IMG/VR virus record: IMGVR_UViG_2571042390_000001
Source of the DNA: a virus
Taxonomy: Duplodnaviria; Heunggongvirae; Uroviricota; Caudoviricetes
DNA: 64,000 bases
Strand: one strand, 5' to 3'
Part shown: positions 1 through 17,130 of the stretch, one piece after another
Numbering within the stretch: position 1 is the first letter of the stretch
Layout of the letters: every line of letters begins with the position of its first letter
The notes under the pieces: model-generated
Databases searched by the model: none
What the model saw: only the letters and a program-made list of their open reading frames with translations
What the model was told of the DNA's origin: nothing
Translations under genes and position numbers: made by a program

Positions 1-16
1 CGGCAACGGAAGGAGC

Positions 17-2674
17 ATGGGTATCTGGCGTGCCTATGAGCAAGGGCAGGCGGATGAATATCGCCAGTACCTGATCGATCATGCAAAAGAGTTTGGTCTG
101 AATCCTGACGACATTTCACAAATGTCTATGCCCGTATTGGTGCGAGAAAGACTCACAGATGTAGACCGCGCACAATTTGCCCGCGATTCAAACATCAGCG
201 ATCTGCAAGAGATGGCTGCAAGTGAAAAAGCGTATGCGGATGCGCAATTTCTCACTGAGAGCGTCATGGCGCTATTTAATCCTTCAGATGATGGAAATCT
301 ACTGGCGCGGTCCAATGATGCGTTTATTCGTGCGTTTTTGCGCGAAATAGGTGATACGGCGACGGCAGGTTTGCTTACTGCCGATGGGCGTCCAACGAAA
401 CAACTTATCGACCGCATCCAGAATGCAATTTTTGCCAAAGCGTACAAGGATGAAAGGCTTGTTCGGCTGGTGGCGGAAGAGCCAGATCCGGAAATGCGTA
501 ACATTCTTACCGCATTAAATACGGCAGCCAGCGATTTTGCGCAAATGCAGTCGCTTTCAGGTGATGTTCACCATGACACGGTAACCGGACTGGTAGACGG
601 TATAGAGCAATTGAATGGTCTGGATAAACAGGCTATTGCCGCGCTACAGGAAGCAATTAACCTTGTTCGTGAAGCAAAAGATAACGGTCAGGCAGTAGAA
701 GAGGTGATCGCACAGCGTGGATTGTTTGGAGATAGCACTCCGGAAGCAGAAGCGCTTGCTCTGTTTATTGTTGCCAACAACCGAAGCGCTAAGCGAATGG
801 GGGCAGCTTTCAAGAAACTGGCGCAAAAAATTAACGATGAACTTATTCACCAGCAACAAGCGTTAGGCGATATGTTCGGCGGCGGAGATGTCGATCTGCG
901 TAGCATTTTATCTGCCGTTTCTGATGAAATTGAGGCTGAGTATGGCGAAGGTAAAGGGCTTAATTTCGCCATGTTTGAATCGGTTTCAGGAGAGGTCGAA
1001 CCATACATTTCAAAGCTAATTGCTGATGCGACCAGCGTGGAGGACTTGATCCGAATCGTGAAGGTGTCAGAAAAAATTAAGGAGTCCGCAAAAAAAATAA
1101 AGCGCAATGTATTTTTGGAACTTGGTTTTTATATTCGCAATGTCACCGTTAATGAGATTAAGGAGTGGGCTAAACGTTATGGATACAGCGACGCTGTGTT
1201 AACAACGATGTTATTGTCTTATCAACGCAGCAATTTTTATGCTAACGCACTGCGTGACGCGATTGAAAAAGGAGATGAAGCTCCTTCGCTCGCAGATGAA
1301 AGAAATATTGATTGTGATATTGAAACGTTTTGCAACATATCAGAAGAAGGCGTGCCCGCTGAACAATTTATACGTGTTTTACATAATGCAGCAAAACATA
1401 TTCCTGATGACTTTAGTATTGATGAATTGCGCAATGGTTGTCTTGTTTGGTTAGGTAACTATTTAAAATCTCCAGCGTCTATTGCAGAGAAAACAGCTTT
1501 AAGATTTAGAAAGGAAATGAATAAAGCTGGAAGCGCAGAAGAGATGGTGTGCATAATCCAAAATACTTTGAAGTTATTCAAAAAGAGCTTGCATAATATC
1601 GACGATATTATGGCGGCTGGTAGGAAAATAACAGCCAGTGTCGGAGTTAGCTCTGAACTAACGGCAGAGGAGATCGCTGATGCGTATATTGAGACACTTG
1701 TCAGGCTTAAGGAGATAGTGGAATTAGCAGAGCATTCCTCATATTACGGAATCAAGGAGCGTGTTGACTTTACTATAGAACAAATCAATAAAGTTAGGTC
1801 AAATAAGGAAAAACTCACTGACTACCTTGCTGAGGTTTTGCACCAGAATGATCATGGGATTGGATATGATCTGAAAAAAATGCTTGTTTTTAATCTGGAC
1901 ATACCGGAAGACTTGCAAGCAGAACTATATGAAATAGCTTCATTAACACGTGGACAAAAAGCCTATCCTAATGCGCTTGAAAATGTAGTACATAAAAAAG
2001 TCAGAGCCGCATTTGACATGATTCTTGAATCGTCAAATGTGTCACATGACCAGTCTAAGGAATGGAGTCGTGGGATTGCTATTTCTGATGAAGCAGAGCA
2101 GTTAAGTGGTCACGATAATGAAACTTTCTCCCGTAAAGCATACAGTATTCGCGAGACGATTGAAAAAGCCTATATTATTTCAGGAGGGACTTTATCTACA
2201 TTAAAAAATATTAACCACAAGAACAATGTTCGTGCTTTTGCAAGTCGAAATGGGAATATAACAATTGATGCTAATAGTGATCACGAGCGTGTATTATGGC
2301 ATGAAATAGGTCACCATATAGAACATTCAAATCCCCATCTATTGGAGAGGGCCAAAGCCTTCATTAAATCAAAAACTAACGGTAAAGTTTCTTATCATAA
2401 TATTGGTAGCCGTGGCAGTGCTGAGTATTTGGTGCGAACCGACCTAAGTCATGGATATATGTCTAAAATTTATATGGAAAATACGGTAAGTTCTGTCAGC
2501 GGCAGATTTATATCAAAGCCACCTGCATTAAGCAATTGCAGGGCGACTGAGATTTTTTCTATGGCCTTGCAGATGTATGCCGATCCGGAGCAGGCGACTA
2601 ACTCTGTATTAAACAATGACGGCGTGCTGGAATTTTTCTTGGGATGTATGAAGGAGTTGCAAAATGAAGTATAG
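17..2674 (+). CDS. Large hypothetical protein (885 aa) with zincin-like HExxH motif (HEIGHH); possible virion-associated or anti-defense protein
   Basis: Long ORF with AGGAG RBS just upstream of ATG at 17; HEIGHH encoded at about 2300-2317; no other domain recognised. Confidence 0.55.
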   Translation: MGIWRAYEQGQADEYRQYLIDHAKEFGLNPDDISQMSMPVLVRERLTDVDRAQFARDSNISDLQEMAASEKAYADAQFLTESVMALFNPSDDGNLLARSNDAFIRAFLREIGDTATAGLLTADGRPTKQLIDRIQNAIFAKAYKDERLVRLVAEEPDPEMRNILTALNTAASDFAQMQSLSGDVHHDTVTGLVDGIEQLNGLDKQAIAALQEAINLVREAKDNGQAVEEVIAQRGLFGDSTPEAEALALFIVANNRSAKRMGAAFKKLAQKINDELIHQQQALGDMFGGGDVDLRSILSAVSDEIEAEYGEGKGLNFAMFESVSGEVEPYISKLIADATSVEDLIRIVKVSEKIKESAKKIKRNVFLELGFYIRNVTVNEIKEWAKRYGYSDAVLTTMLLSYQRSNFYANALRDAIEKGDEAPSLADERNIDCDIETFCNISEEGVPAEQFIRVLHNAAKHIPDDFSIDELRNGCLVWLGNYLKSPASIAEKTALRFRKEMNKAGSAEEMVCIIQNTLKLFKKSLHNIDDIMAAGRKITASVGVSSELTAEEIADAYIETLVRLKEIVELAEHSSYYGIKERVDFTIEQINKVRSNKEKLTDYLAEVLHQNDHGIGYDLKKMLVFNLDIPEDLQAELYEIASLTRGQKAYPNALENVVHKKVRAAFDMILESSNVSHDQSKEWSRGIAISDEAEQLSGHDNETFSRKAYSIRETIEKAYIISGGTLSTLKNINHKNNVRAFASRNGNITIDANSDHERVLWHEIGHHIEHSNPHLLERAKAFIKSKTNGKVSYHNIGSRGSAEYLVRTDLSHGYMSKIYMENTVSSVSGRFISKPPALSNCRATEIFSMALQMYADPEQATNSVLNNDGVLEFFLGCMKELQNEV

Positions 2675-2957
2675 CATTGTGAGTCCCGCTGGGATTAGAG
2701 GGATTGTTGAATGCTCTGATGACGGCACATTGCGTATATTTGAAGGCGATATTTCGGAAGAAAATATTGCGCAAGATTTACGCTTTATCAACACAAATTC
2801 CGCAATGGGGATCGTGAATACCATTCATGCCGATGGGGTGTTTGTTCTGCGGAGCCTGGAAACTGTTGGCTGGGAGGTTGAGTGGCCAGAGGTGGAAGGA
2901 GATCCTGACGACGAAGACGATACTGGCGAATCATATCAAGACATTGATGTGAATTGA
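2664..2957 (+). CDS. Hypothetical acidic protein (97 aa)
   Basis: Start overlaps end of upstream ORF; acidic C-terminus; followed by terminator. Confidence 0.4.
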   Translation: MKYSIVSPAGIRGIVECSDDGTLRIFEGDISEENIAQDLRFINTNSAMGIVNTIHADGVFVLRSLETVGWEVEWPEVEGDPDDEDDTGESYQDIDVN

Positions 2958-2970
2958 TATGATTGATAAT

Positions 2971-2993
2971 CCCGCCGTCAGGCGGGTTTTTTT
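2971..2993 (+). terminator. Rho-independent terminator
   Basis: cccgcc/ggcggg stem with 4-nt loop followed by T7 run. Confidence 0.7.
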
Positions 2994-3255
2994 AGCGTGG
3001 TGTAAGAATAAATTCAGGATGCTCTCCAGCAAGCAATAACAGGTACTCAAATTCACCAGCCATAAGGCGTCTCGGTTTATTTCTATCTTCTTTGAATTGC
3101 CAAGCCCGGAGTTGATACCCCATTTTGTGGGCTAACTCCGTTTGCGTTAGCCCCATTCGCTGGCGGATTTCAATTATAGTTTCCGGGGTGTTTGGTGGGA
3201 GTTGTTTCACAATATGCCCTTTGCCAATGCTGTGATTCGCAACGAAGTATATCAT
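2992..3255 (-). CDS. HTH (XRE-like) DNA-binding protein
   Basis: IRQRMGLTQTELAHKMG helix-turn-helix signature. Confidence 0.5.
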   Translation of the reverse strand: MIYFVANHSIGKGHIVKQLPPNTPETIIEIRQRMGLTQTELAHKMGYQLRAWQFKEDRNKPRRLMAGEFEYLLLLAGEHPEFILTPR

Positions 3256-3267
3256 CGTTGAATCGAT

Positions 3268-3570
3268 TCACAGAGCTGCGCCGAATAGACCGCAGCATGG
3301 CATCCCTTCATCACAGTACCTGGCCCATTCTTTTTGGCATTCTTCTGTTTGCGCGTATTGGCTTAACGCGTCATCCAGCATATCCCAGGCCTTATAGGAA
3401 TCCTCTGCAACGCTAAACAAAGTCCTGCCTTCCCGGCTTAGAATTTGCAGATTGTAAATGTTTTCATTGCTCAGACATGCGCGGCTGATATGCATGTAAA
3501 CCGACCATGCAGGAACTCGATTTTTGATAGCAAGTTGGTGTAATTTGGAATTAATTAAAGAGCTTTTCAT
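3268..3570 (-). CDS. Hypothetical protein (about 100 aa)
   Basis: GGAG RBS 7 nt upstream of the ATG encoding MKSSLINSK; track ORF extends further to 3621. Confidence 0.4.
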   Translation of the reverse strand: MKSSLINSKLHQLAIKNRVPAWSVYMHISRACLSNENIYNLQILSREGRTLFSVAEDSYKAWDMLDDALSQYAQTEECQKEWARYCDEGMPCCGLFGAAL

Positions 3571-3753
3571 GGGATTTCTCCGCAGCAAAGTGGTCAACTT
3601 TTTCAATCTTAATGCGCACAATGTGCATATTCAAGTTTTATTCTTCACTTTGTTACGAGAGGGGCCAGCCAATATTTCTAGTTGAAAAGATCCATCATCA
3701 AAAATCACATACTGATTATGCTGCCGCAAACTGAAAACATTTCGCGGTGACTC

Positions 3754-5436
3754 ATGGCAACGAAAGACAAAAACAAAGGCTTTCTGTCGGCATTGAAGAA
3801 AGCCTTCAACAGTGGCGATGTCACGCCTGCCGATCCGGTCGTTTTTACGAGCGGTCATAGTGTCGTTGCGCGTTCTGGTCTGTCCGCTTTACGTCCGGGG
3901 ATACTGGGTGGCAATAGCGATGGCATGACAAGCGCGGCAGATACAGTATCAATTTCGGCAGAACTGCCCGGCGACCGCCTGCAAAAGTACAACATCCTGG
4001 AAACGATGGCTAAAAGCCCGACTATCTCGACGGCTTTAAATATTCACATTGCACATGCGCTTGCGCCTTCAAAAAAAACCGGACAAGCATTCATCCTTTC
4101 GCCAAAGGATGGTTCCGATGCCGAGGCAGTAAGTAGATGTGAAGAGTTAACCGCTGATTTGGGGACGATGATTAATGACGGACTTCCTTCATGGGCCATG
4201 ATTATGGCGATCTTTGGGGTGTCTTATGTCCGACCTTATGCTGAACAGGGCAGGGGGATAACAGGCATTGAGTCCAGTTATTACACTCTGCCACACTTCG
4301 TCCAGGAGTTTTATCGTGGTAGCCAGCTGGTAGGTTTCAGTGGTGATTACATTCTGGATACGCATAGTTTGCGCAGAGTAATAACCGAACCGTGGAATCT
4401 GGTTTCCATGAAAAATCCCTATTGGACGCCACAGCATAAAGTTATTCCGGTTAGCTACGGCACAAAAGGGTACTCACTGTTAAGTGATCAGGCTGATAAG
4501 CCGTTAATGGAGACGCAGAATTACGGAACTTCATTCCTGGAATACAGCTATGAACCTTACCTTAATTTATGTGCTTCGCTCGCCGCGCTGAAATCAACGC
4601 GAAATAATGCAGCCAAAATTGACCGCCTGATTGCTCTTACGACGAACACACTGGACCCGGTTAATGCGGCGAACTATACGCGTGGCGTCAGCCAGGCATT
4701 GAAGCGTCATAGTGACCTGGTGGCGCAAAGGTCGATTAATGCCAACGCTATTCCGACTGTGCTTAACCATCTGATACCTGTTATGGGAGACGGGAAGAAC
4801 GGCATCACCATTGATACGCAATCCATACCCGCAGATATCAGTGGTATCGAAGACGTTATGTTTCACCTCCGGCAGCTTGCTGCAAGCCTCGGCATTGACG
4901 CAACAATGCTTGGCTGGGCTGATCAGATGAGCGGAGGGCTTGGAGAAGGCGGCTGGCAGCAAACTGCTATCCAGGCTGCATTGCGTGCGAACTGGATCAG
5001 ACAGGCCGCCCAGCGAACTATTTATCGGCTTCTGGACATTCACCTCGCTTATAAATACGGCAAGGTTTACACCGAAACAAACCGCCCTTATGACGTGCAA
5101 TTCAACTCAATGAACACAGCTATCCAGGAAGAGGAAAACCGAGAACTGGATGCACGCGCCAACTTTGTTGCTGTCATCTCCCAAATTATGGACCAGATCC
5201 AGAACAACCCGAAACTGGCTGGTAGCGACGCGTTTATGCGTTATCTGTTCACTGAGCAGTTGCACATCGACGATGACACTCTCAACACCATGATCAAAGA
5301 GTTTAAGGCGAATGAATCAGAGCAAAACAACGAGCATGGTATGTACGAATCCGCGCCGTTGTCGTCCGGTGACGATCCGGAAAACTGGACGCCAGAACAG
5401 TTAATAAACTTTGCAAAATTTGTGATGAGCAATTAA
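3754..5436 (+). CDS. Hypothetical protein (560 aa); possibly a virion morphogenesis protein (portal-like by size and context only)
   Basis: Long ORF followed 13 bp later by a coiled-coil ORF; no diagnostic motif seen. Confidence 0.5.
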   Translation: MATKDKNKGFLSALKKAFNSGDVTPADPVVFTSGHSVVARSGLSALRPGILGGNSDGMTSAADTVSISAELPGDRLQKYNILETMAKSPTISTALNIHIAHALAPSKKTGQAFILSPKDGSDAEAVSRCEELTADLGTMINDGLPSWAMIMAIFGVSYVRPYAEQGRGITGIESSYYTLPHFVQEFYRGSQLVGFSGDYILDTHSLRRVITEPWNLVSMKNPYWTPQHKVIPVSYGTKGYSLLSDQADKPLMETQNYGTSFLEYSYEPYLNLCASLAALKSTRNNAAKIDRLIALTTNTLDPVNAANYTRGVSQALKRHSDLVAQRSINANAIPTVLNHLIPVMGDGKNGITIDTQSIPADISGIEDVMFHLRQLAASLGIDATMLGWADQMSGGLGEGGWQQTAIQAALRANWIRQAAQRTIYRLLDIHLAYKYGKVYTETNRPYDVQFNSMNTAIQEEENRELDARANFVAVISQIMDQIQNNPKLAGSDAFMRYLFTEQLHIDDDTLNTMIKEFKANESEQNNEHGMYESAPLSSGDDPENWTPEQLINFAKFVMSN

Positions 5437-5449
5437 CCGGAGGGAAATA

Positions 5450-6448
5450 ATGCAATCACTGAATACTGTTACGGATCGCTTCTCCCTGGTAGAGAAAATC
5501 CGCAAACACACACCGCAGAACAACCGAAATTACGTCATTCAGTCGGTACGAGACACATTCAACTCGCCAGAAACAAAAGAGCGTATCGCGCTGGGTGAGA
5601 TGTATGGTTATTACGGTCATGGTCGCCGGGCGATGCACTATAACAAAACGAAAAGCCTGAACTTGCCGGAAGTCTCTGTTGTGATGGTAGATGGGAAGCC
5701 TGTTGTATTGGAGAACGTGCCGTCAAACAGGACTATCGACATTTCGATTGACGACAACGGCATTGTTACTCATACGCAGGAAATACTGGATACAGACACC
5801 GGGCGTATTGTTCAGGGCATGATTAATTCTGGTGCTGGTGGTTGGTCGTGGGCTACATCTGGTCCAGATTCATCGGTATCCCTGGTAAAGTCTTTCCACG
5901 GCTTTGATTACGTAACTGTGCCTAACTATATCAGCCTCGACAAGAAAAGCCTGATGCTTGAATCAGCAGAAGAGCGCGATGCGGCTATTCATGCAGCACT
6001 TATCGAACAAGGTTTTACCGATAACGCTGCTACGGATCTGGTTCACCACTTTTCAGCAATGAAAAATCAGCAAGCCATGCTCGAATCTGCACATCGTGAA
6101 GCCCTGGAATCAGAATTGATGCTCCTTGAAGTGGAAAACATACAGCTTCGAGATAAGCTGCGCGCTCAAACAGCGATGATGGAAAGCCAGGGGGAAAATG
6201 CAAAGCAATACCGCCGGATTTTGCGTGAAGCTATCCAGGAAATGCCTGTTTTTATCAGCGCAGAACAGCGCCGGGCGCTCTGCCGTATGCAGTCTGAAGA
6301 TGATGCCCGCATAGTGGCTGCGATGCTTGAATCTCTTGGGGCAAATGCTACTTATGGCTTACCGGTATCAGGCAAGAAAGAACCAGAGTTATCACCGAAG
6401 GAGAACAAAAACACTACCCCGTTACTCTTCGTTTCCAGAAGGGGGTAA
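5450..6448 (+). CDS. Hypothetical protein with C-terminal coiled coil (possible scaffold or head-processing role)
   Basis: Heptad-like region LMLLEVENIQLRDKLRAQTAMMESQ; tight linkage to upstream ORF. Confidence 0.45.
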   Translation: MQSLNTVTDRFSLVEKIRKHTPQNNRNYVIQSVRDTFNSPETKERIALGEMYGYYGHGRRAMHYNKTKSLNLPEVSVVMVDGKPVVLENVPSNRTIDISIDDNGIVTHTQEILDTDTGRIVQGMINSGAGGWSWATSGPDSSVSLVKSFHGFDYVTVPNYISLDKKSLMLESAEERDAAIHAALIEQGFTDNAATDLVHHFSAMKNQQAMLESAHREALESELMLLEVENIQLRDKLRAQTAMMESQGENAKQYRRILREAIQEMPVFISAEQRRALCRMQSEDDARIVAAMLESLGANATYGLPVSGKKEPELSPKENKNTTPLLFVSRRG

Positions 6449-6466
6449 TCGCCTTGTTAAGTTAAA

Positions 6467-6475
6467 TTTCTAACA
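6467..6475. promoter_or_regulatory. Operator-like motif TTTCTAACA (candidate C1-type repressor site)
   Basis: One of about 15 intergenic copies of the same core; upstream of ORF 6649. Confidence 0.45.
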
Positions 6476-6562
6476 TAGTGTATTTATATACACTGTTGAT
6501 CCTGGTGGATGGGATCGAGTAGGATCGCGGTCACTGCTCCGGTAGCGACTGCCAAAAAAGCA

Positions 6563-6590
6563 AAAGCCGCTTCTCAGCGGCTTTTTGGGT
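6563..6590 (+). terminator. Rho-independent terminator (possibly bidirectional)
   Basis: aaagccgc/gcggcttt stem flanked by an A-run and a T-run. Confidence 0.6.
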
Positions 6591-6648
6591 GTATAAATCC
6601 ACTGCCATAGATTTATACGGTAGATAGATTTTTTCACGGAACTATCTG

Positions 6649-7611
6649 GTGAGTATTTTAAATTCAGTTTCAGTAACTTTCAACACTTCTGAGTATAAAA
6701 ACAACACTGAATACCACAAAAAAATCAAAGGTCATCAGTTGAGTTTTTTTGCTCGTCATAGCGGTCTTCTTTCCCCTTCACATAGCGCCATTATTGCCGA
6801 GTTCGCCAACCTGGCAGGGTCTACCGATGAATACATGATCCGTCGCTCATATGCTGATATGTCCGAGATTACAGGACGCAGTATTTCTACTGTGCGCCGG
6901 GCATTTGCTGAAGCGACGAAGTGCGGAATGCTTGTTAAGCAACATCAGGTAGCGAATAACAATGCCCAGGTGTGTAACGTATATCGGTTTACGACACAAT
7001 TTCTCCACTTCATTCATGTAGCAATGGAGATAGGGGGTAAGCAGGGCATCAAATTTGCCAACGCCACAAAACTGGTTAAGCAGTTGATTTCAAAGGTTCG
7101 TTATTTTTTTGAAACTGGGAACCCCCTGTTCAAATTGAACAAGTCCCCCCATGTTCAAAATGAACAGCCAATAGAAAATAAGAGTCACTCTATAGCCAAA
7201 AGAAGAGAAAGATCATGCGCGGTTCAGCCAAAGGCTTCACCTGCAGATAGTTCTCAAACGGATAACGGGGTACTGGATAAAAAACCAGTAATCAGGGAAG
7301 AACATACCAACCACTGCCTGGCGGCGGCAAAAGCGAGAGCTGCAAAGCGTCGTTCAGACGAGGGGCACGCAAAACGGCAGGCTCTGTATCGTACCGCTGA
7401 AAATCTGGCAAAAAAATTTGCATGGATACGTAGTGCCGCTACCGCAGTGAATAAGCCTAAACAATCCAGTGCCCTAGATTTCTCAATGGATTATTCTGGC
7501 TCCCAGGGGTGTGCAACCATTGGTGAAGCCTTTGACCTGATGAAACAGCGTGGCTATCGGTCTGAATTTGACCGTGAGGATTGGTCAATCCCTGCGGGAT
7601 TTAGGGGATGA
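6649..7611 (+). CDS. Putative DNA-binding protein (320 aa)
   Basis: HTH-like segment RSISTVRRAFAEATKCGMLV; operator-like motif upstream. Confidence 0.45.
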   Translation: MSILNSVSVTFNTSEYKNNTEYHKKIKGHQLSFFARHSGLLSPSHSAIIAEFANLAGSTDEYMIRRSYADMSEITGRSISTVRRAFAEATKCGMLVKQHQVANNNAQVCNVYRFTTQFLHFIHVAMEIGGKQGIKFANATKLVKQLISKVRYFFETGNPLFKLNKSPHVQNEQPIENKSHSIAKRRERSCAVQPKASPADSSQTDNGVLDKKPVIREEHTNHCLAAAKARAAKRRSDEGHAKRQALYRTAENLAKKFAWIRSAATAVNKPKQSSALDFSMDYSGSQGCATIGEAFDLMKQRGYRSEFDREDWSIPAGFRG

Positions 7612-9162: not shown

Positions 9163-9186
9163 CCCCGGCCTGGCCGGGGCTTTTTT
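9163..9186 (+). terminator. Rho-independent terminator
   Basis: ccccggcc/ggccgggg stem followed by T6. Confidence 0.65.
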
Positions 9187-9671
9187 CATGCCTCATTAGT
9201 TGAGGTTGCTGCGTCTCCGACTGGTAACAGGGCGGTATTGCGTGGTTCGCCAGCAGGCCAGCGATAGCCAGACACTCTTGATGTTGGGAATGCGCGAATA
9301 TTAACCGCATCCCCCTGGTTCCCACCCAGGACAAGCAGATCGCCATTGGCGCGGCGTCCGACAACGAAGCCTACGTGCCCACCGCCTACGCGGGTAAATA
9401 CAACGATACATCCGTATGCCGGTGTATCTAATTTCTCGCCCCAATCCAGATAGGATTTTGCCGACTCAAATCTTGTTGAGCGAATGCCTACACGTTCCAG
9501 CATTGCACCGACAAATGCTGCGCACCACGGCGTTTCATCGTCTTTAATTCCGCCGCGCTTGATGTCGCGCCAGAACTGAACGATTTCAGGGTTGTGTTTA
9601 GCGCCTTTTATTTCAGTCAAGCCAATGTGCTTACGGGCTTCAATTAGCCAGCGAGGTTCAATGTTTGCCAT
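9186..9671 (-). CDS. NlpC/P60-like (TIGR02594-type) putative peptidoglycan hydrolase
   Basis: Candidate catalytic Cys (PWCAAFV) and His (GGHVGFVVG) motifs. Confidence 0.5.
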   Translation of the reverse strand: MANIEPRWLIEARKHIGLTEIKGAKHNPEIVQFWRDIKRGGIKDDETPWCAAFVGAMLERVGIRSTRFESAKSYLDWGEKLDTPAYGCIVVFTRVGGGHVGFVVGRRANGDLLVLGGNQGDAVNIRAFPTSRVSGYRWPAGEPRNTALLPVGDAATSTNEA

Positions 9672-9822: not shown

Positions 9823-12800
9823 TTGGACAAACTACTTCATTCAATCAGTGAAGCCTCCAGCTTAGGCGAACTGATTGAAATTGTTAGTCGGTTGCATAAA
9901 TTACGTGCTGTTGCGACCTTTGGCGTCAGGAAAGCCGATGGCGTCAGTATTCAGAAAACACGCCGGGCAGCAAACAATGCCGCAGTAAATCTTCTTAATT
10001 CCCTTCCGCCCGGCTTCGATGGGGCGAAATTAACTGACGAACAACGTCAGATTCTTGCTGGGTATACCGGTGAAGGCGGCCTGACAGATGGTGAGGGCAG
10101 CCAATACGAATACTACACGCCACAGTTTATGGCTGAAGGTATATGGGAGCTGTTTGCTGACTACGGTATTGATGGCGGTCACGTACTGGAACCATCAGCT
10201 GGCACGGGTATTTTCCAGGAGACAAAACGGCAGGGAATGATAATGACCAGCGCCGAGCTGTCTCCGATCTCCGGTCGAATCAACCAGCTGTTGCACCCGG
10301 AAGACGATGTGAACATTGGGGCGTTTGAGGCTCTGGCGGCGAAAGACGCAATGTATGACCACGCTGTTGGTAACGTACCGTTTGGCGAAGGCCGTTCCGG
10401 CGTTGCAGGGCTTGATCCGGCATATGCAAACGAGAAGAACGTTGGCAATTACTTTGTGCTGCGCACGATCGACAAGGTTAAACCTGGTGGGCTTATCGTA
10501 TTGGTGGTGCCGAATGGCATGACTGATGGTACGAAATACAAAAAATTGCGCGATAAAGTCAGCCGTAAAGCGGAATTTTTGGGCGCGCATCGTATGCCTT
10601 CCGGTACGTTCAGTGAATCAGGTACAGATACCGTGGTGGACGTATGGGTATTGCGTAAACACCCGGAAGCCTTCCTGGAGATGATCCCCGATACGGATGA
10701 TTCGACGCTCAAATCGGCAAACGTCCTTTGGGTTACCTTCCTCAAAGGGAAATGGTTTACAACCGAAGGGAAGCGATTTGTTTACGGCGACATGGAACGT
10801 ACCAGCTTCCGCAATACCCTAGTGGTGAAAAAAGACGGTCGTGTATCCAATGAGTCGATGAAAACCGCGCTATCTCGTCGCTTTGATAGTCGCATCAATT
10901 GGGATTTGCTCGGCGTAACTACTCAGGCATGGCAGGGCGCGAAAGTGGGCGATAAACGCCTTGTAGGCGGTATCTGGCATGAGTTTGATGGTCTGAAATG
11001 GGTTCAGGACACGACAACCAAATCCTCCGCGCTTGATGTAAGTCGATATGGTGTTTCGACGTTTGGCGATCTGCAGATCGCGTTCCAGTCAACAAACGGG
11101 ATTCTGGCTTTGTCATGGGACCAGATATCGGCGATCGCGTCCGACTATCCATCGGTTGTCAGTGATGAAGTGGCAGCAATGATTCGCTTTGCTGGCAAGC
11201 AGCGAGAAAAAGACAGGGAGCGCGTTATGCGCGGTGCACTGATAGGTCAGTTGATCAACAAGGCACTTGATTTGCGTAACCTGGGGGTGAACGTTGATGA
11301 CAAACTGGCAGATGCATCCCGCTTGGCGGCAGCAGAAGTTGCGAAGTATGGACCACCGCACGCGATTAAGCTGAATGGGCTTGCTGAAGCTGGCGCTAAA
11401 AACTGGATGACGTTCACTGGCAATGTGAAACAGGATGGTTCCACTTCTGACCTTCTGGCAGGGCGACTTGATGTAACGGATGGTGCTGCCGGTATTGACT
11501 TTACGCGTCCTGAACAAGTGATAGCACATCTTTTTAGTGATGTAGCCCTTAATCCTATAACGCTGGGCGACTTTCGTGAGGCGTTTGCTGGTGAACTGCC
11601 AGAGGACGACGACGCGGTCCTTGAATACCTGGCGAAATTTGATGATATCGCTATTGATGGGTATGGCTGTCTGCTGCCGATGGACCGCGCCACCAGCGGC
11701 GATGTTGCAACCAAAACAGCACTGCTGGTGGGCTGGCGTGATGCGTCAACAGGTGAGCAGAAAGCGAACTTTGAGCGTCAGTTGGCGAAAATCGAAGAGA
11801 AACGCATTTTCACGCCACTAAATAAAGTCACCGTTAATCTGAATGCCCGCTGGCTGGATCGCCGCTTGATAAAAGAGTTCCTGGCAGAGCAGGGCTATGA
11901 CGAGTTTAAGTACACTGAACCTGATCTGAAGGTCGTCGATGGCATTCTGGTATCTCCGGACGATTACGAAGGTAAGGACGGGGTATTTACCGGCTATCAG
12001 CTACGAACCGTAAACGGCAAAAACGGGAATGAGTTCAAGAAGGCCAACAATAAAGACGGCTTCCTGAACCAGTTAGAAAACTACCTGAACGGTGTTAAAC
12101 CGCGTGGGCAGAACGCTAACGAGTACCTGGATAAAATTGCTCAACTGGAAGTTAGCTTTAACGACTGGTTACGCACCCACCCGCAGGCGGATCAGATAGC
12201 CCGTGACTATAACGACGCATTCAATGGTTTCATTCCGTTCACACATTCTGACGCACCGCTTGGCCTGGAAGGGATTAGTGGAAAGCGCATTCCTCTGACT
12301 TATCAGAATGAAGAAGTTCGGCGCTTGTCAGAAGATGGGCGTGGCATCATGGGATTTGGTACCGGGCTGGGTAAAACCACGACCGCGCTTGCGCTTGAGG
12401 CGTATAACTTCGAAACAGGTCGCACTAAACGCACGTGTATTGTTGTTCCGAAGGCGGTTTATCAGAACTGGTATCACGAGGCACAGAGTTTCTACAGTGC
12501 TGATGCCTTCGCCAATATGATGTTTATCGGTTTGGATGAAGTTCGTGATGACAGCGGAAATATTCTGACCGCGCCGGTGCTTGATGAAAATGGCGAACCA
12601 CGCCTCGACAGTAACGGGCAGCCTCTTACCAGAAATGTTGTGAAAGAGTCCTCCAGCGCCGTTATCGTTCAGCGTATGAACATGATCCCGTCGTCAAATT
12701 GGCGAACGGTCATCATGACAAAAGAACAATTCGCGTCTATCCCGCTACGAGAAAAAACCATCGAGGAGAACTCACAGCAAGCTGTCTTTAATGCTGTGGA

Positions 12801-15800
12801 AATGGGGCGTCTTGACCTGGCGTCCGGTAAACACCGTGATGCGCAGAAGAAGAACAAGATTAAGGATCAGGCCGCGAATACCGGTACAACGAAGAAGCAG
12901 AATATCCCTTACTTTGAGGATATGAACTTCGATAGCGTGATTGCCGACGAGGGGCATAACTACCGCAACTCCTTTAATGCCGGGCGTGAAGCGGGACAAC
13001 TGGCATATTTGCCTAACCCGGCAGTATCCAAGATGGCCCGCGACATGGCTGTAAAAGCTGCGTACATGATGAAACGCAACAACGGGCGTGGTGTAGTCAT
13101 GCTGACGGCAACACCGCTGGTGAACAGTCCGATTGATGCCTTCAACATGCTGTCTACTGTCATTCCGCAGGAAGAGTGGATGCGTATGGGCATCATTACG
13201 CCTGATGATTTCGTTCGTGTGTTTGGCAAAACAGCCACAGTTCAGGTCCAGAAAATTTCCGGGGAAGTGGAAGAGAAGCAGGGGCTGGTGGGCTTCCAGA
13301 ACCTTGACGGCCTGCGTGGTATTTTCCATCGTTGGACCACTCTGAAGACTGCTGCAGATGTCGGAGCGACGGTTAAAATTCCCGACATCATCGAGAACAC
13401 CTTGCAGATCCCGATGACAGGGGAGCAGGAGACTGCTTATGAAGAGCTTCGTAAGCGTGCTCAGGAGTTAAGTCGCAATGATGAGCTGACAGTCGATGAA
13501 AACGGGCATATCACTAACGACAAACCGGATGATTTCATCTTCTCCATCATCCGTGACATGGATAAGGTTGCTATAGACCCGGATCTGTATGCCAGTGCGA
13601 TTACATTCCAGTTCCCCGTTGAGCTTGCAGACCAGGTAAAAGCTATTGCTGATGCCTTGCCAAAAGTAGCTGGCGGTAAAGTGGCAGATGATGTTGATGA
13701 GGCCGAGGAAGACGGCGCTGGCGGGCTGGTCAGTACGCGTACCAGCAAGGTAGTGAAGACCGCTTTTAGTGAACATCCGACGCATGTTGAAATACGTGCC
13801 AGCATTGAACTGGAAGCTGAAATACTGAAGGCCATTGCGGCTGCCGGCATTGATATGCAGCAGGTGTCGCACCCCATCCCGCCGAAGTATGCCGCGCTGA
13901 TCGAAAATCTTCGTGAAGGTCTGAAGAACGGTAAGCAGATCGTCTTTATTGATGAAAAAGCCCAGCACCAGAAGCTGCGCCGTATTATCGCCAGTGCACT
14001 GCAAATGCCGGAGCAGGAGATTGGCATTATCAATGCGACGACAGTTAGCCAGGCTGGTGGCATCAAGCTGAAGAAGGTGAATAAGCCGACCGAACCTACT
14101 CCAAACAAAAACGGTGAATACAAAGAAGGGGCATGGGAAACCTACTACAGCAAACTTGCCCAATATGAGGATTATCTCTCCGCTAAAAATGATGCTGGCC
14201 TTGAGGGCATGGAAGGTATTGCCGCCGACTATAACGAAGGTCGCACGCGCATCATAATCTGTAACAAGAAGGCTGAAGTAGGTATTAACCTGCACATCGG
14301 GACAACCGATATCCACCACCTGACACTACCCTGGACACCAGCCAGTATCGACCAACGAAATGGGCGCGGTGCGCGCGTAGGTTCACCGCAAGAAAAGGTC
14401 AATGTTCACTACTATTGTGGCAAAGGCACATTCGACGACTTCCGTCTGGATACGCTGAAACGTAAGAAAGACTGGATCAAGATGGTGATGACATCCGACA
14501 TGTCAGAGATCGCCAATGGTGATGCGGATGATGCTGATGAACGCGCCATTATGCTGGCGGCAAACCCGGAAGAACGCCGCGCAATCATGGCTCGCCAGGC
14601 GCAAGAGCGTGAAGAACGTCTGAAACTGAAAGCACAGCGCGAGGCCAACAATGCTCTCGATATCTACCTGAAAGCGGCAAACGCCGCCGGAAAAGATATC
14701 GGCATGATGGAGACAGAACTGAAAAGCGCGATGGAACAGATAGAGTATTACCAGCGCAATCTTGACGACCTGATAAAAGCGGGTACGAACAGGAATGGGC
14801 AAAAATACGCGCTTGAGCAGTTGAGTAGCTACAGAAAACGTGCGCGGGTGCTGCGGTTTGCGATCACCAGGGCAAAAGACGCGGATACCATAATGAAACG
14901 CTCTCGTGGTGATGTGGAGCGCGCTATTAAGTCTGGTGTGCTGGATATCAGTATCGATGTTATTCAGAACCCACAGGAATATATGCGCACTGACAAGAAT
15001 ATCCTGTTGCATAAAGGTAGTTATTACCGTGCAGTCATTGATGATCGCGAAACAACAGCGATTGTCCGGGTGGAAAAAATTGACGGTGAAAAAGCACAAT
15101 ACCTCTGCCGTATCGCCTGGCTGGATAGAGCAAGTCGTTACGCTCGAGCACCGGGGTCAATCGTTACATTGCCGTTTGACTCTGTGATTGAAGCGGTAAC
15201 TTTTGAAGAGGGGGTAGCTGAATCGCGCGCAACGGCTGCGCGTGGTGTTCAGTGCCACCAGCTATCAACAATACTTACTCGCGATCAGTTCTATGATGCT
15301 ATTCGCAATGGGGTAATGAATGTTATTGCTGGTAAACCTGGTAATGCATGGGGCGGTGGGTCAGCTATTAAATACTGGGCATATCGCACAGATGATGGTC
15401 AGATCGCGCTGTCATCGGCCTATGATGGCGTGATAGGCCAAAAAATCGGGCGAGCATCGGATATAGCACCTGAGCGATGGATATATCCTGATGGCAACGA
15501 CGAGGCGCTGAAGCGTGAAGTGGCAAAAATACAAGCCAGTGATAACCCGCTGAATATCGTGGACGGCGAGGGATTCCTCCAGGCATTGTATGGGTATGAT
15601 TACACCCAGGGAATGCAGGCATGGGGCGCACAGGCAACGATGGATGATGTTGCCCATGAGTTCGAAAACTGGATGGCTGGGCGTGGTCTGTCAGGTCGTT
15701 CGCTTAATAAAGTCACTTCTGAAGATATTCTTAGCTTGTTCCGCAAACCGTCCGGAGAAGGTCTGGAATCATTCTGGAGGACCGTGCTGGCATACCGTTT

Positions 15801-16659
15801 ATTCCAGGGCAGGATGAAAGCCTTTAGCAATATCGATGATATTGAACGGATGTTTAATCAGGTCAAGATCGCGAAAATTAAGGCGAAGATCGAAAAAACA
15901 CGTTCTGCGCTGGTGGCCTGGCGCGATGCATTGTTTGAGCAATATAAATCACTCAGTGATGCAGATGGATGGGCGGCATTGGAACAGCTGGCGAATAATG
16001 GGGTAGATGGAGCGAAACTCGCCATTGTTCAGGCTGATAACCCCCTGGAATCACCGGCAGCACAGTGGATTAAGGTGGGGGCTGTCATCAATGCATTTGA
16101 TGAAAAACACATTAGTAAGGACGATTTTGCTGATGCTGTTTCTGTTAATCGCCTGGTAGAAATGGCTACCCGCCGCGCCCGTGAGTTGAAAGACGGCGAC
16201 TATGTGAATGAGTTGCCGGATACGCTCAAATCGGCAACGTGGCAGGACTATGTATCGCTGAAAAACGGCGGGGCCACTGAATCAGAGATCGCGGAAAGGC
16301 TTGAGCAGGCTGAAAGCAAAAGAGAAGAGCAGGCGGCAGTGGCTGAAGCCAGAGCTGATGAAGCGGCGAATGATGACTATATCATTGTGGTTAATGATAA
16401 GCCGATTCGCGCTAAGGCGCGTGTTCGCGGGCGCTGGTGGAGCGTCAGCGAGGACGTTGGCGCGGTTTATCTCATTGCCGACCAACCAGGTTCCTCGACA
16501 ATACGGAACGCCAAAGACGCGATTAAGAAGATTGGCGGACGTTTCTGGAATTTTGAAGCAAACCCGGTTGCTGATGTGAACTTTGACCGTCCTGCATGGA
16601 TGGTATCTACGCGTTACTCGGTAGATGAACTGCGTAAAATAATCGCCGATGCGGCCTAA
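9823..16659 (+). CDS. darB: DarB-like antirestriction protein: N6-adenine methyltransferase fused to SF2 helicase (2278 aa)
   Basis: LEPSAGTG (SAM motif I), NVPFG (motif IV), Walker A GTGLGKT, DEGH box ADEGHNYRN, motif VI QRNGRGAR; TTG start with GAGGGGG RBS. Confidence 0.8.
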   Translation: MDKLLHSISEASSLGELIEIVSRLHKLRAVATFGVRKADGVSIQKTRRAANNAAVNLLNSLPPGFDGAKLTDEQRQILAGYTGEGGLTDGEGSQYEYYTPQFMAEGIWELFADYGIDGGHVLEPSAGTGIFQETKRQGMIMTSAELSPISGRINQLLHPEDDVNIGAFEALAAKDAMYDHAVGNVPFGEGRSGVAGLDPAYANEKNVGNYFVLRTIDKVKPGGLIVLVVPNGMTDGTKYKKLRDKVSRKAEFLGAHRMPSGTFSESGTDTVVDVWVLRKHPEAFLEMIPDTDDSTLKSANVLWVTFLKGKWFTTEGKRFVYGDMERTSFRNTLVVKKDGRVSNESMKTALSRRFDSRINWDLLGVTTQAWQGAKVGDKRLVGGIWHEFDGLKWVQDTTTKSSALDVSRYGVSTFGDLQIAFQSTNGILALSWDQISAIASDYPSVVSDEVAAMIRFAGKQREKDRERVMRGALIGQLINKALDLRNLGVNVDDKLADASRLAAAEVAKYGPPHAIKLNGLAEAGAKNWMTFTGNVKQDGSTSDLLAGRLDVTDGAAGIDFTRPEQVIAHLFSDVALNPITLGDFREAFAGELPEDDDAVLEYLAKFDDIAIDGYGCLLPMDRATSGDVATKTALLVGWRDASTGEQKANFERQLAKIEEKRIFTPLNKVTVNLNARWLDRRLIKEFLAEQGYDEFKYTEPDLKVVDGILVSPDDYEGKDGVFTGYQLRTVNGKNGNEFKKANNKDGFLNQLENYLNGVKPRGQNANEYLDKIAQLEVSFNDWLRTHPQADQIARDYNDAFNGFIPFTHSDAPLGLEGISGKRIPLTYQNEEVRRLSEDGRGIMGFGTGLGKTTTALALEAYNFETGRTKRTCIVVPKAVYQNWYHEAQSFYSADAFANMMFIGLDEVRDDSGNILTAPVLDENGEPRLDSNGQPLTRNVVKESSSAVIVQRMNMIPSSNWRTVIMTKEQFASIPLREKTIEENSQQAVFNAVEMGRLDLASGKHRDAQKKNKIKDQAANTGTTKKQNIPYFEDMNFDSVIADEGHNYRNSFNAGREAGQLAYLPNPAVSKMARDMAVKAAYMMKRNNGRGVVMLTATPLVNSPIDAFNMLSTVIPQEEWMRMGIITPDDFVRVFGKTATVQVQKISGEVEEKQGLVGFQNLDGLRGIFHRWTTLKTAADVGATVKIPDIIENTLQIPMTGEQETAYEELRKRAQELSRNDELTVDENGHITNDKPDDFIFSIIRDMDKVAIDPDLYASAITFQFPVELADQVKAIADALPKVAGGKVADDVDEAEEDGAGGLVSTRTSKVVKTAFSEHPTHVEIRASIELEAEILKAIAAAGIDMQQVSHPIPPKYAALIENLREGLKNGKQIVFIDEKAQHQKLRRIIASALQMPEQEIGIINATTVSQAGGIKLKKVNKPTEPTPNKNGEYKEGAWETYYSKLAQYEDYLSAKNDAGLEGMEGIAADYNEGRTRIIICNKKAEVGINLHIGTTDIHHLTLPWTPASIDQRNGRGARVGSPQEKVNVHYYCGKGTFDDFRLDTLKRKKDWIKMVMTSDMSEIANGDADDADERAIMLAANPEERRAIMARQAQEREERLKLKAQREANNALDIYLKAANAAGKDIGMMETELKSAMEQIEYYQRNLDDLIKAGTNRNGQKYALEQLSSYRKRARVLRFAITRAKDADTIMKRSRGDVERAIKSGVLDISIDVIQNPQEYMRTDKNILLHKGSYYRAVIDDRETTAIVRVEKIDGEKAQYLCRIAWLDRASRYARAPGSIVTLPFDSVIEAVTFEEGVAESRATAARGVQCHQLSTILTRDQFYDAIRNGVMNVIAGKPGNAWGGGSAIKYWAYRTDDGQIALSSAYDGVIGQKIGRASDIAPERWIYPDGNDEALKREVAKIQASDNPLNIVDGEGFLQALYGYDYTQGMQAWGAQATMDDVAHEFENWMAGRGLSGRSLNKVTSEDILSLFRKPSGEGLESFWRTVLAYRLFQGRMKAFSNIDDIERMFNQVKIAKIKAKIEKTRSALVAWRDALFEQYKSLSDADGWAALEQLANNGVDGAKLAIVQADNPLESPAAQWIKVGAVINAFDEKHISKDDFADAVSVNRLVEMATRRARELKDGDYVNELPDTLKSATWQDYVSLKNGGATESEIAERLEQAESKREEQAAVAEARADEAANDDYIIVVNDKPIRAKARVRGRWWSVSEDVGAVYLIADQPGSSTIRNAKDAIKKIGGRFWNFEANPVADVNFDRPAWMVSTRYSVDELRKIIADAA

Positions 16660-16695: not shown

Positions 16696-17130
16696 ATGAC
16701 GACATTAATTGACACTGTAAAACCGACGGAATCCTACCTTGAGGACATTTTGCCGCAGGCGCTCAATGGCAGGAGTGAAGAGGCGTTTCTGGATGCATAT
16801 CTGAATGGCATGGTGGAAAGGCTGAAACGAGATCCACAGCTTTATCACCTTTATGGGCCGTGGTGGCCTGCGCTTAAAACGTTATTGCTGGAGCGCGGCG
16901 ACATATCATTTGGACAAGTTGTAGATAGTGATGTGGCAGAGATCTACAAAATGAGTCGCCCGGCGCTTACGGTTTTGGCTGGGCATCTGTATTCGAGCGA
17001 TCGCCTGGAAAATGACGCGGTATACAATCCTGTTCATGCTCTGGAAGTCGCACCTTATGCCGATGATACAGAGCCATACGTGTACACAAGTTACGACGAG
17101 TCTATAGAGAAATATCGAATTATGGGGTAG
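16696..17130 (+). CDS. Hypothetical protein (144 aa)
   Basis: ORF 37 bp after darB-like stop; probably same operon. Confidence 0.45.
   Translation: MTTLIDTVKPTESYLEDILPQALNGRSEEAFLDAYLNGMVERLKRDPQLYHLYGPWWPALKTLLLERGDISFGQVVDSDVAEIYKMSRPALTVLAGHLYSSDRLENDAVYNPVHALEVAPYADDTEPYVYTSYDESIEKYRIMG

Follow-up and report, generated by a model that had tools for sequence, protein, structure and literature searches.

A divergent ddrB allele with a predicted C-terminal zincin-like metallopeptidase domain in a D6-like, P1-related phage-plasmid of Escherichia coli

In the present study, we analyzed a stretch of 64,000 nucleotides (nt) from the virus record IMGVR_UViG_2571042390_000001 (Caudoviricetes), hereafter the window, which belongs to a D6-like, P1-related phage-plasmid of E. 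coli. The first gene is ddrB, of which the window carries the 3' 87%, namely codons 124-1013 of 1013 and the stop codon (2673 nt, positions 2..2674, + strand), as judged from the open frame, the coding sequences (CDSs) of sister plasmids and the homology to P1 DdrB. Counted from an ATG at position 17 (ATG17), the open reading frame (ORF) has 885 codons, and its parts all lie on the + strand. These are the end of the ddrB-ParB domain (PF18763; 45 residues at 17..151, located by Pfam, the rest of the domain being outside the window), the remainder of a conserved N-module (full-length residues ~174-450; 152..976, delimited by a breakpoint with phage D6, PHROG 14693 and homolog conservation), a variable all-alpha middle (ORF residues 321-650; 977..1966) and a predicted C-terminal zincin-like metallopeptidase domain (ORF residues 651-885; 1967..2671).

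An earlier note on this DNA had described a complete 885-residue protein with a ribosome-binding site and a start at ATG17. We found that the reading frame is uninterrupted down to its stop, TAA at 2672-2674, but that it is also open to the window edge: there is no in-frame stop from base 2 to ATG17, and bases 2-19 (GGC AAC GGA AGG AGC ATG) are read as G-N-G-R-S-M. The window is 99.9% identical to the E. coli plasmid NZ_CP117014, in which the same frame begins at a TTG start, 384 nt before ATG17 and with AAGGGGAG in front of it, and the product has 1013 residues. In five near-identical E. coli plasmids ddrB is 3042 nt long, encodes 1013 aa and begins 368 nt ahead of the window edge (the full-length gene was located at L002:5633-8674), and exactly this CDS is given by RefSeq in three of the sister plasmids (WP_021551758, WP_223700080, WP_247182500). 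Since the frame is open upstream and the sister plasmids hold a 1013-residue CDS, the ORF of the window is incomplete. Its 885 residues are the C-terminal part of a DdrB of 1013 residues, which the window edge truncates, and counting from ATG17 leaves out the first 128 codons of the gene.

The presumed ribosome-binding site, AAGGAG, belongs to the codons of ESGNGRSMG, a conserved motif of the ParB superfamily. In the homolog alignment R127 of this motif is invariant and E122, S123, G124, N125, G126 and M129 are kept in at least 90% of the sequences, S128 being the sole residue of the motif outside the conserved lists. It could be argued that an independent 885-residue protein with its own Shine-Dalgarno sequence starts at ATG17, as AAGGAG stands just upstream of an ATG and P1 DdrB also has a Met matching it. 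However, this AAGGAG lies 1 nt from ATG17, which is too close for normal Shine-Dalgarno spacing, and it encodes the conserved GNGRS motif inside the ParB domain; moreover, the frame of ATG17 is open upstream, and RefSeq and all homologs use the upstream start. We regard an independent protein of this kind as highly improbable.

Comparison with P1 by BLASTP aligned residues 4-1011 of the full protein collinearly with residues 2-993 of P1 DdrB (YP_006491.1, 995 aa) at 44% identity (777 bits). In tblastn the protein was covered to 99-100% by ddrB of P1, P7, SJ46, RCS47 and Cronobacter phage JK004; this coverage was reached in 17 P1-like phage records, and three more gave 90% in two to three pieces. 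One P1-like phage record labels ddrB 'putative metallopeptidase'. Among the PHROG profiles, PHROG 2299 matches ORF residues 1-884 at profile positions 123-994 of 995 and PHROG 14693 matches ORF residues 1-324. The Pfam family ddrB-ParB matches residues 42-173 of the full protein (E 1e-41), and in the ORF of the window residues 1-45 align with profile positions 79-120 of 121. Membership of the family was judged on three grounds, and the protein has full-length collinear homology to P1 DdrB, an N-terminal DdrB-type ParB/Srx domain with the conserved active-site arginine (the invariant R127), and a place in the late dar operon, the latter by synteny, with the upstream genes beyond the window. On this sequence evidence the protein is identified as an ortholog of P1 DdrB and a member of the P1-type packaged anti-restriction (Dar) apparatus. 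We consider the identity as DdrB, together with the zinc-peptidase fold described below, to be very nearly certain.

The two proteins share the ddrB-ParB N-terminal domain, the peptidase motifs HE(I/L)GHH...ATE(I/V)FSMALQ and the operon slot between ddrA and hxr. They differ in that they are only 44% identical, with a poorly conserved middle region, and in that the genome here is of the D6 type, where prt-pro-repL follow, whereas P1 has IS1, ssb and lyz instead. The protein had been regarded as unassigned, with nothing recognizable besides its HExxH motif; it carries PF18763 at its N-terminus and is a named gene product of a studied system. The suspected link to P1-type packaged anti-restriction was borne out, as P1 DdrB is found in P1 virions (PMC9024508). 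The earlier note had also named a structural head component with known homologs as a case that would refute it. This case holds only in part: DdrB is an internal head protein with known homologs, but it is a non-essential Dar component and not a capsid building block (PMC10695390).

The full protein has a mass of 112 kDa, and the comparison of homologs divides it into three parts: a conserved stretch (residues ~15-478 in full-length numbering), a variable middle and a conserved C-terminus (residues ~785-1011). These correspond to an N-module of ~450 residues, a helical middle of ~330 and a C-terminal peptidase of ~235. The middle region is predicted to be all-alpha with a predicted local distance difference test (pLDDT) score of ~90, and it packs with the peptidase as one compact unit with a predicted template modelling (pTM) score of 0.82. 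It resembles only generic helical bundles. A Pfam match to SRP19 at ORF residues 533-610 was dismissed: it scored 24.9 bits against a cut-off of 25, on a generic helical bundle and with no supporting context.

The motif HEIGHH, noticed earlier near residue 760, was located at ORF residues 762-767 (nt 2300-2317). Within it, HEIGH (2300..2314, + strand) holds the predicted zinc ligands H762 and H766 and the predicted general base E763, as suggested by conservation and by a helix of the domain model. E845 in the motif ATEIFS (2549..2551, + strand) is the predicted third zinc ligand, on the basis of its invariance, the model and the gluzincin architecture of PMC5512222. In full-length numbering H762, E763, H766 and E845 are residues 890, 891, 894 and 973. 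An HExxH appears in 4.4% of shuffles of the protein, therefore the motif alone is weak evidence, and the case for it depends on conservation and fold. When 1.84 billion representatives were searched exhaustively with HMMER, 164 relatives of the C-terminal domain were found at E<=1e-3; of 151 homologous domains, 143 retain the HExxH. In an alignment of 30 sequences, with identity to the domain of the window down to ~20%, R739, H762, H766, E769, E803, Y814 and E845 are invariant, and E763, Y819 and S848 occur in at least 90%.

The AlphaFold2 model obtained from this alignment (pLDDT 93.9, pTM 0.91) has N-terminal helices, beta strands, the HExxH helix (domain residues 107-121, bearing H112, E113 and H116), a beta-rich insert and a helix right after E845. 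The conserved HExxH thus lies on an alpha-helix, and the invariant E845 stands at the N-terminal start of the next core helix (196-205). The overall fold is similar to that of solved zincins. A Foldseek search with the domain model returned nothing significant. No Pfam family matches the peptidase domain of the window, and the isolated sub-threshold matches that occurred were each found in one of the 30 homologs; no match came from an NCBIfam search, so that no score exceeded the cut-off of a curated peptidase family (MPTase, ATLF, Reprolysin and M78 of Pfam; NCBIfam). Sequence searches of the PDB, with the single protein and with a profile, gave no relative of the C-terminal domain, and a word-indexed protein search with the C-terminal 285 residues gave one fragment only.

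Taken together, conservation and the model place the HExxH in a zincin-like metallopeptidase fold, in line with the earlier proposal; the case in which the motif lay outside a metal-binding fold did not arise. The C-terminal domain is predicted to be a gluzincin-type metallopeptidase, nearest in structure to endopeptidases of the M34 type. The closest solved folds, PPEP-2/3 and anthrax lethal factor, are secreted endopeptidases acting on other proteins. Unlike MtfA and the MEROPS M34-type enzymes (PPEP-2/3 and the catalytic domain of anthrax lethal factor), the present domain carries additional helices at its N-terminus, and its two core helices are separated by a beta-rich insert; the Pfam family ATLF gave a sub-threshold match in just one of the 30 homologs (E 0.03). 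With the metallopeptidases (MPTases) of polyvalent proteins (PMC5512222) it shares the beta-sheet core, the HExxH helix and the Glu helix. It also shares an acidic residue three positions past the motif (E769 here, Asp in one described clade) and the occurrence in head-packaged multidomain phage proteins, for which P1 DdrB is an example of those authors. In contrast to them, it is not scored by any Pfam MPTase model, and its relatives make up a small separate family.

None of the five near-identical plasmids carries an interrupted ORF, and in the two most divergent comparisons the synonymous and nonsynonymous codon differences were 26:7 and 22:3. The gene is under purifying selection. A decaying pseudogene was considered and rejected on the same grounds, the ORF being intact in all five plasmids and synonymous changes in excess. 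RefSeq nevertheless treats the gene as a pseudogene truncated at the C-terminus in two of these plasmids (L004:1133-2482 and L008:233-1582; NZ_CP117014 and NZ_AP035758) and as a full-length hypothetical protein in the three others; the pseudogene records leave ~1.7 kb, including the peptidase-coding part, unannotated.

In D6 and most D6-like plasmids, positions 1-978 and 3702-7000 of the window are shared at 96-98% identity, while the place of 979-3701 is taken by 1.1 kb that code for a DUF4145 protein and orf23. The 2.7 kb at 979-3701 comprise the C-terminal 565 codons of ddrB, an hxr-like gene, an XRE-family gene (2992-3255, minus strand) and a 117-aa ORF (3268-3621, minus strand). By blastn the breakpoint with D6 is at nt 978, at the end of the N-module. 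D6 DdrB (ASR76386.1) has 454 residues, of which the first 452 are 97% identical, and ends two residues past the breakpoint; the stretch 152..976 is common to both at 96-97% identity. D6 therefore differs from the present element in being without the helical middle, the peptidase, hxr, the XRE gene and the 117-aa ORF, and in having the DUF4145 gene and orf23. Homologs of an extent like that of D6 DdrB were also seen as partial matches (query residues ~32-435) in phage proteins of Acinetobacter, Aeromonas and Pseudoalteromonas, and in many InPase-ParB homologs of Vibrio, which are without the peptidase. The long allele is present in five of 5426 complete E. coli genomes. In a collection of 5.8 billion sequences the best relative of the full protein is 63% identical, and the nearest relatives of the C-terminal 565 residues are ~46% identical.

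In P1, DdrB is a virion head protein described as one that 'aids DarB addition to capsid'; peptides covering 59.5% of it were recovered (PMC9024508). The P1 Dar proteins are loaded in the order Hdf/DarA, DdrA, DdrB, DarB and Ulx, and all need Hdf and DarA (PMC12810830). Dar protects the packaged DNA in cis against type I restriction-modification systems (PMC12707154), and ddrB is not essential for plaque formation (PMC10695390). Iyer, Burroughs, Anand, de Souza and Aravind identified the C-terminal MPTase of P1 DdrB in 2017 and proposed that DdrB processes itself to a reported 76-kDa form, the ParB-bearing N-terminal fragment being packaged (PMC5512222). The GenBank record of P1 already annotates DdrB as 'possible metallopeptidase'. 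The role of a processing protease, which the earlier note had suggested, was accordingly predicted in the literature before (PMC5512222).

By homology with P1 DdrB, the present protein would be made late, would enter the procapsid once Hdf, DarA and DdrA are in it, and would help to load DarB and Ulx. It would then be ejected with the DNA, which the Dar proteins would shield in cis from type I restriction. The likeliest job of the peptidase domain would be cis-cleavage of DdrB, by which the ParB-bearing part may be freed or trimmed before or during packaging. Our analysis favors, with a probability of roughly 0.85, as the best overall explanation that the protein is packaged as part of Dar and that its peptidase domain works in cis. 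Autoprocessing as the mechanism is put forward more tentatively, at somewhat less than even odds.

Several points weigh against this reading. A 76-kDa fragment would end at about residue 692 if N-terminal, or start at about residue 334 if C-terminal, and neither position fits the domain boundaries at ~450 and ~780, which leaves the cleavage site unexplained. Moreover, D6 and most D6-like plasmids carry the 454-residue N-module only and many Vibrio homologs are also without a peptidase, therefore the peptidase would be dispensable for the role of the N-module. Finally, the 76-kDa processing and the function of DdrB are known second-hand, through papers citing the primary work.

On a rival reading, the peptidase would enter the host as an effector and, once ejected, cut a host protein in trans, such as a component of a restriction or defence system, instead of or besides DdrB. 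The strict conservation of the catalytic residues agrees with such an effector, as does the secreted nature of the nearest solved enzymes, which cut other proteins. The same domain ends polyvalent proteins whose effector domains are ART, InPase and ParB, and Iyer et al named this possibility (PMC5512222). Furthermore, the C-terminal module is swapped as a cassette among related phage-plasmids, as expected of a host-range determinant. However, no target is known, D6-type phages manage without the domain, and the loss of ddrB in P1 is described only as affecting DarB loading and protection against EcoB and EcoK (PMC12810830, PMC9024508). We consider an effector acting in trans unlikely.

The requirement of P1 DdrB for the incorporation of DarB (PMC9024508) would also suit a C-terminal region that is mainly a capsid-targeting or scaffold-docking module, in which catalysis is irrelevant. 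There is a precedent in the virion RNA polymerase of N4, whose MPTase-containing region is needed for encapsidation (PMC5512222), and the middle region and the peptidase were modelled as one compact unit (pTM 0.82). A purely structural role would not, however, explain why H, E, H, E, Y and R never vary among homologs with as little as 20-30% identity to the domain of the window, and the 454-residue DdrB of D6 is without the region, yet D6 has darB and ulx. A mainly docking role thus appears quite unlikely to us.

The neighbouring genes agree with this assignment to the dar system. Downstream of ddrB, an hxr-like gene (2664..2957, + strand) is 41% identical to P1 Hxr and overlaps the ddrB stop by 11 nt, an arrangement as in the P1 record. 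In phage D6 and the sister plasmid, ddrB is preceded by lydA-lydB-hdf-darA-ddrA. The gene is the fourth of the late dar operon hdf-darA-ddrA-ddrB-hxr. A terminator-like hairpin, CCCGCC-GTCA-GGCGGG followed by T7 (six G-C pairs; 2971..2993, + strand, a pattern match), probably marks the end of this operon. The giant DarB-like ORF, said earlier to be co-oriented with the present gene, was confirmed as a darB homolog of 2278 aa at 9823..16659 on the + strand, on the basis of D6 orf15, 'similar to P1 darB', and of SNF2-type matches. A candidate ulx homolog of 144 aa follows at 16696..17130 (+ strand), proposed from position and length, as D6 orf14, 'similar to P1 ulx', is 435 nt long and stands directly after darB. 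If 16696-17130 is ulx, the window holds three of the six Dar genes, namely ddrB (partial), darB and ulx; hdf, darA and ddrA, which sit upstream of ddrB in D6 and the sister plasmid, would fall outside it.

Two further ORFs lie on the minus strand. A 161-aa ORF at 9186-9671, between the antirepressor region and darB and opposed to its neighbours, has relatives annotated as TIGR02594-family protein or putative peptidoglycan hydrolase. Inside ddrB, an antisense ORF of 141 aa at 79-504 corresponds to 'iddB' of P1 (64% identity over 98 aa). Rich in Ser, Ala and Arg, it runs opposite the stretch of ddrB that is conserved best, and may reflect this conservation instead of being a gene.

The literature already covers DdrB along with both its ParB-like domain and its C-terminal metallopeptidase, and the earlier guess rediscovers published knowledge. 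That a packaged anti-restriction protein carries a zincin domain was an essentially correct idea, and the model of a complete ORF was an artefact of the window edge. What is new here is the divergent allele, the replacement of the C-terminal cassette in D6 and the inconsistent annotation in RefSeq, where the truncated-pseudogene labels of some plasmids hide the peptidase-coding 1.7 kb, a modestly useful point. A bolder possibility, which we put forward as a long shot, is that the C-terminal 565 residues (the helical array and the M34-like peptidase), hxr and the XRE gene form an exchangeable counter-defence cassette, the peptidase being an injected effector against a specific host defence protein, which it cleaves. 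If this were true, related phage-plasmids would swap the cassette for others, the DUF4145 cassette of D6 among them, depending on which defences they encounter, and nature would already have set up the experiment in the long/short ddrB polymorphism. Overall, the long (1013 aa) and short (454 aa, D6) alleles on a backbone that is 96-98% identical offer a clean genetic handle on the peptidase module in Dar.

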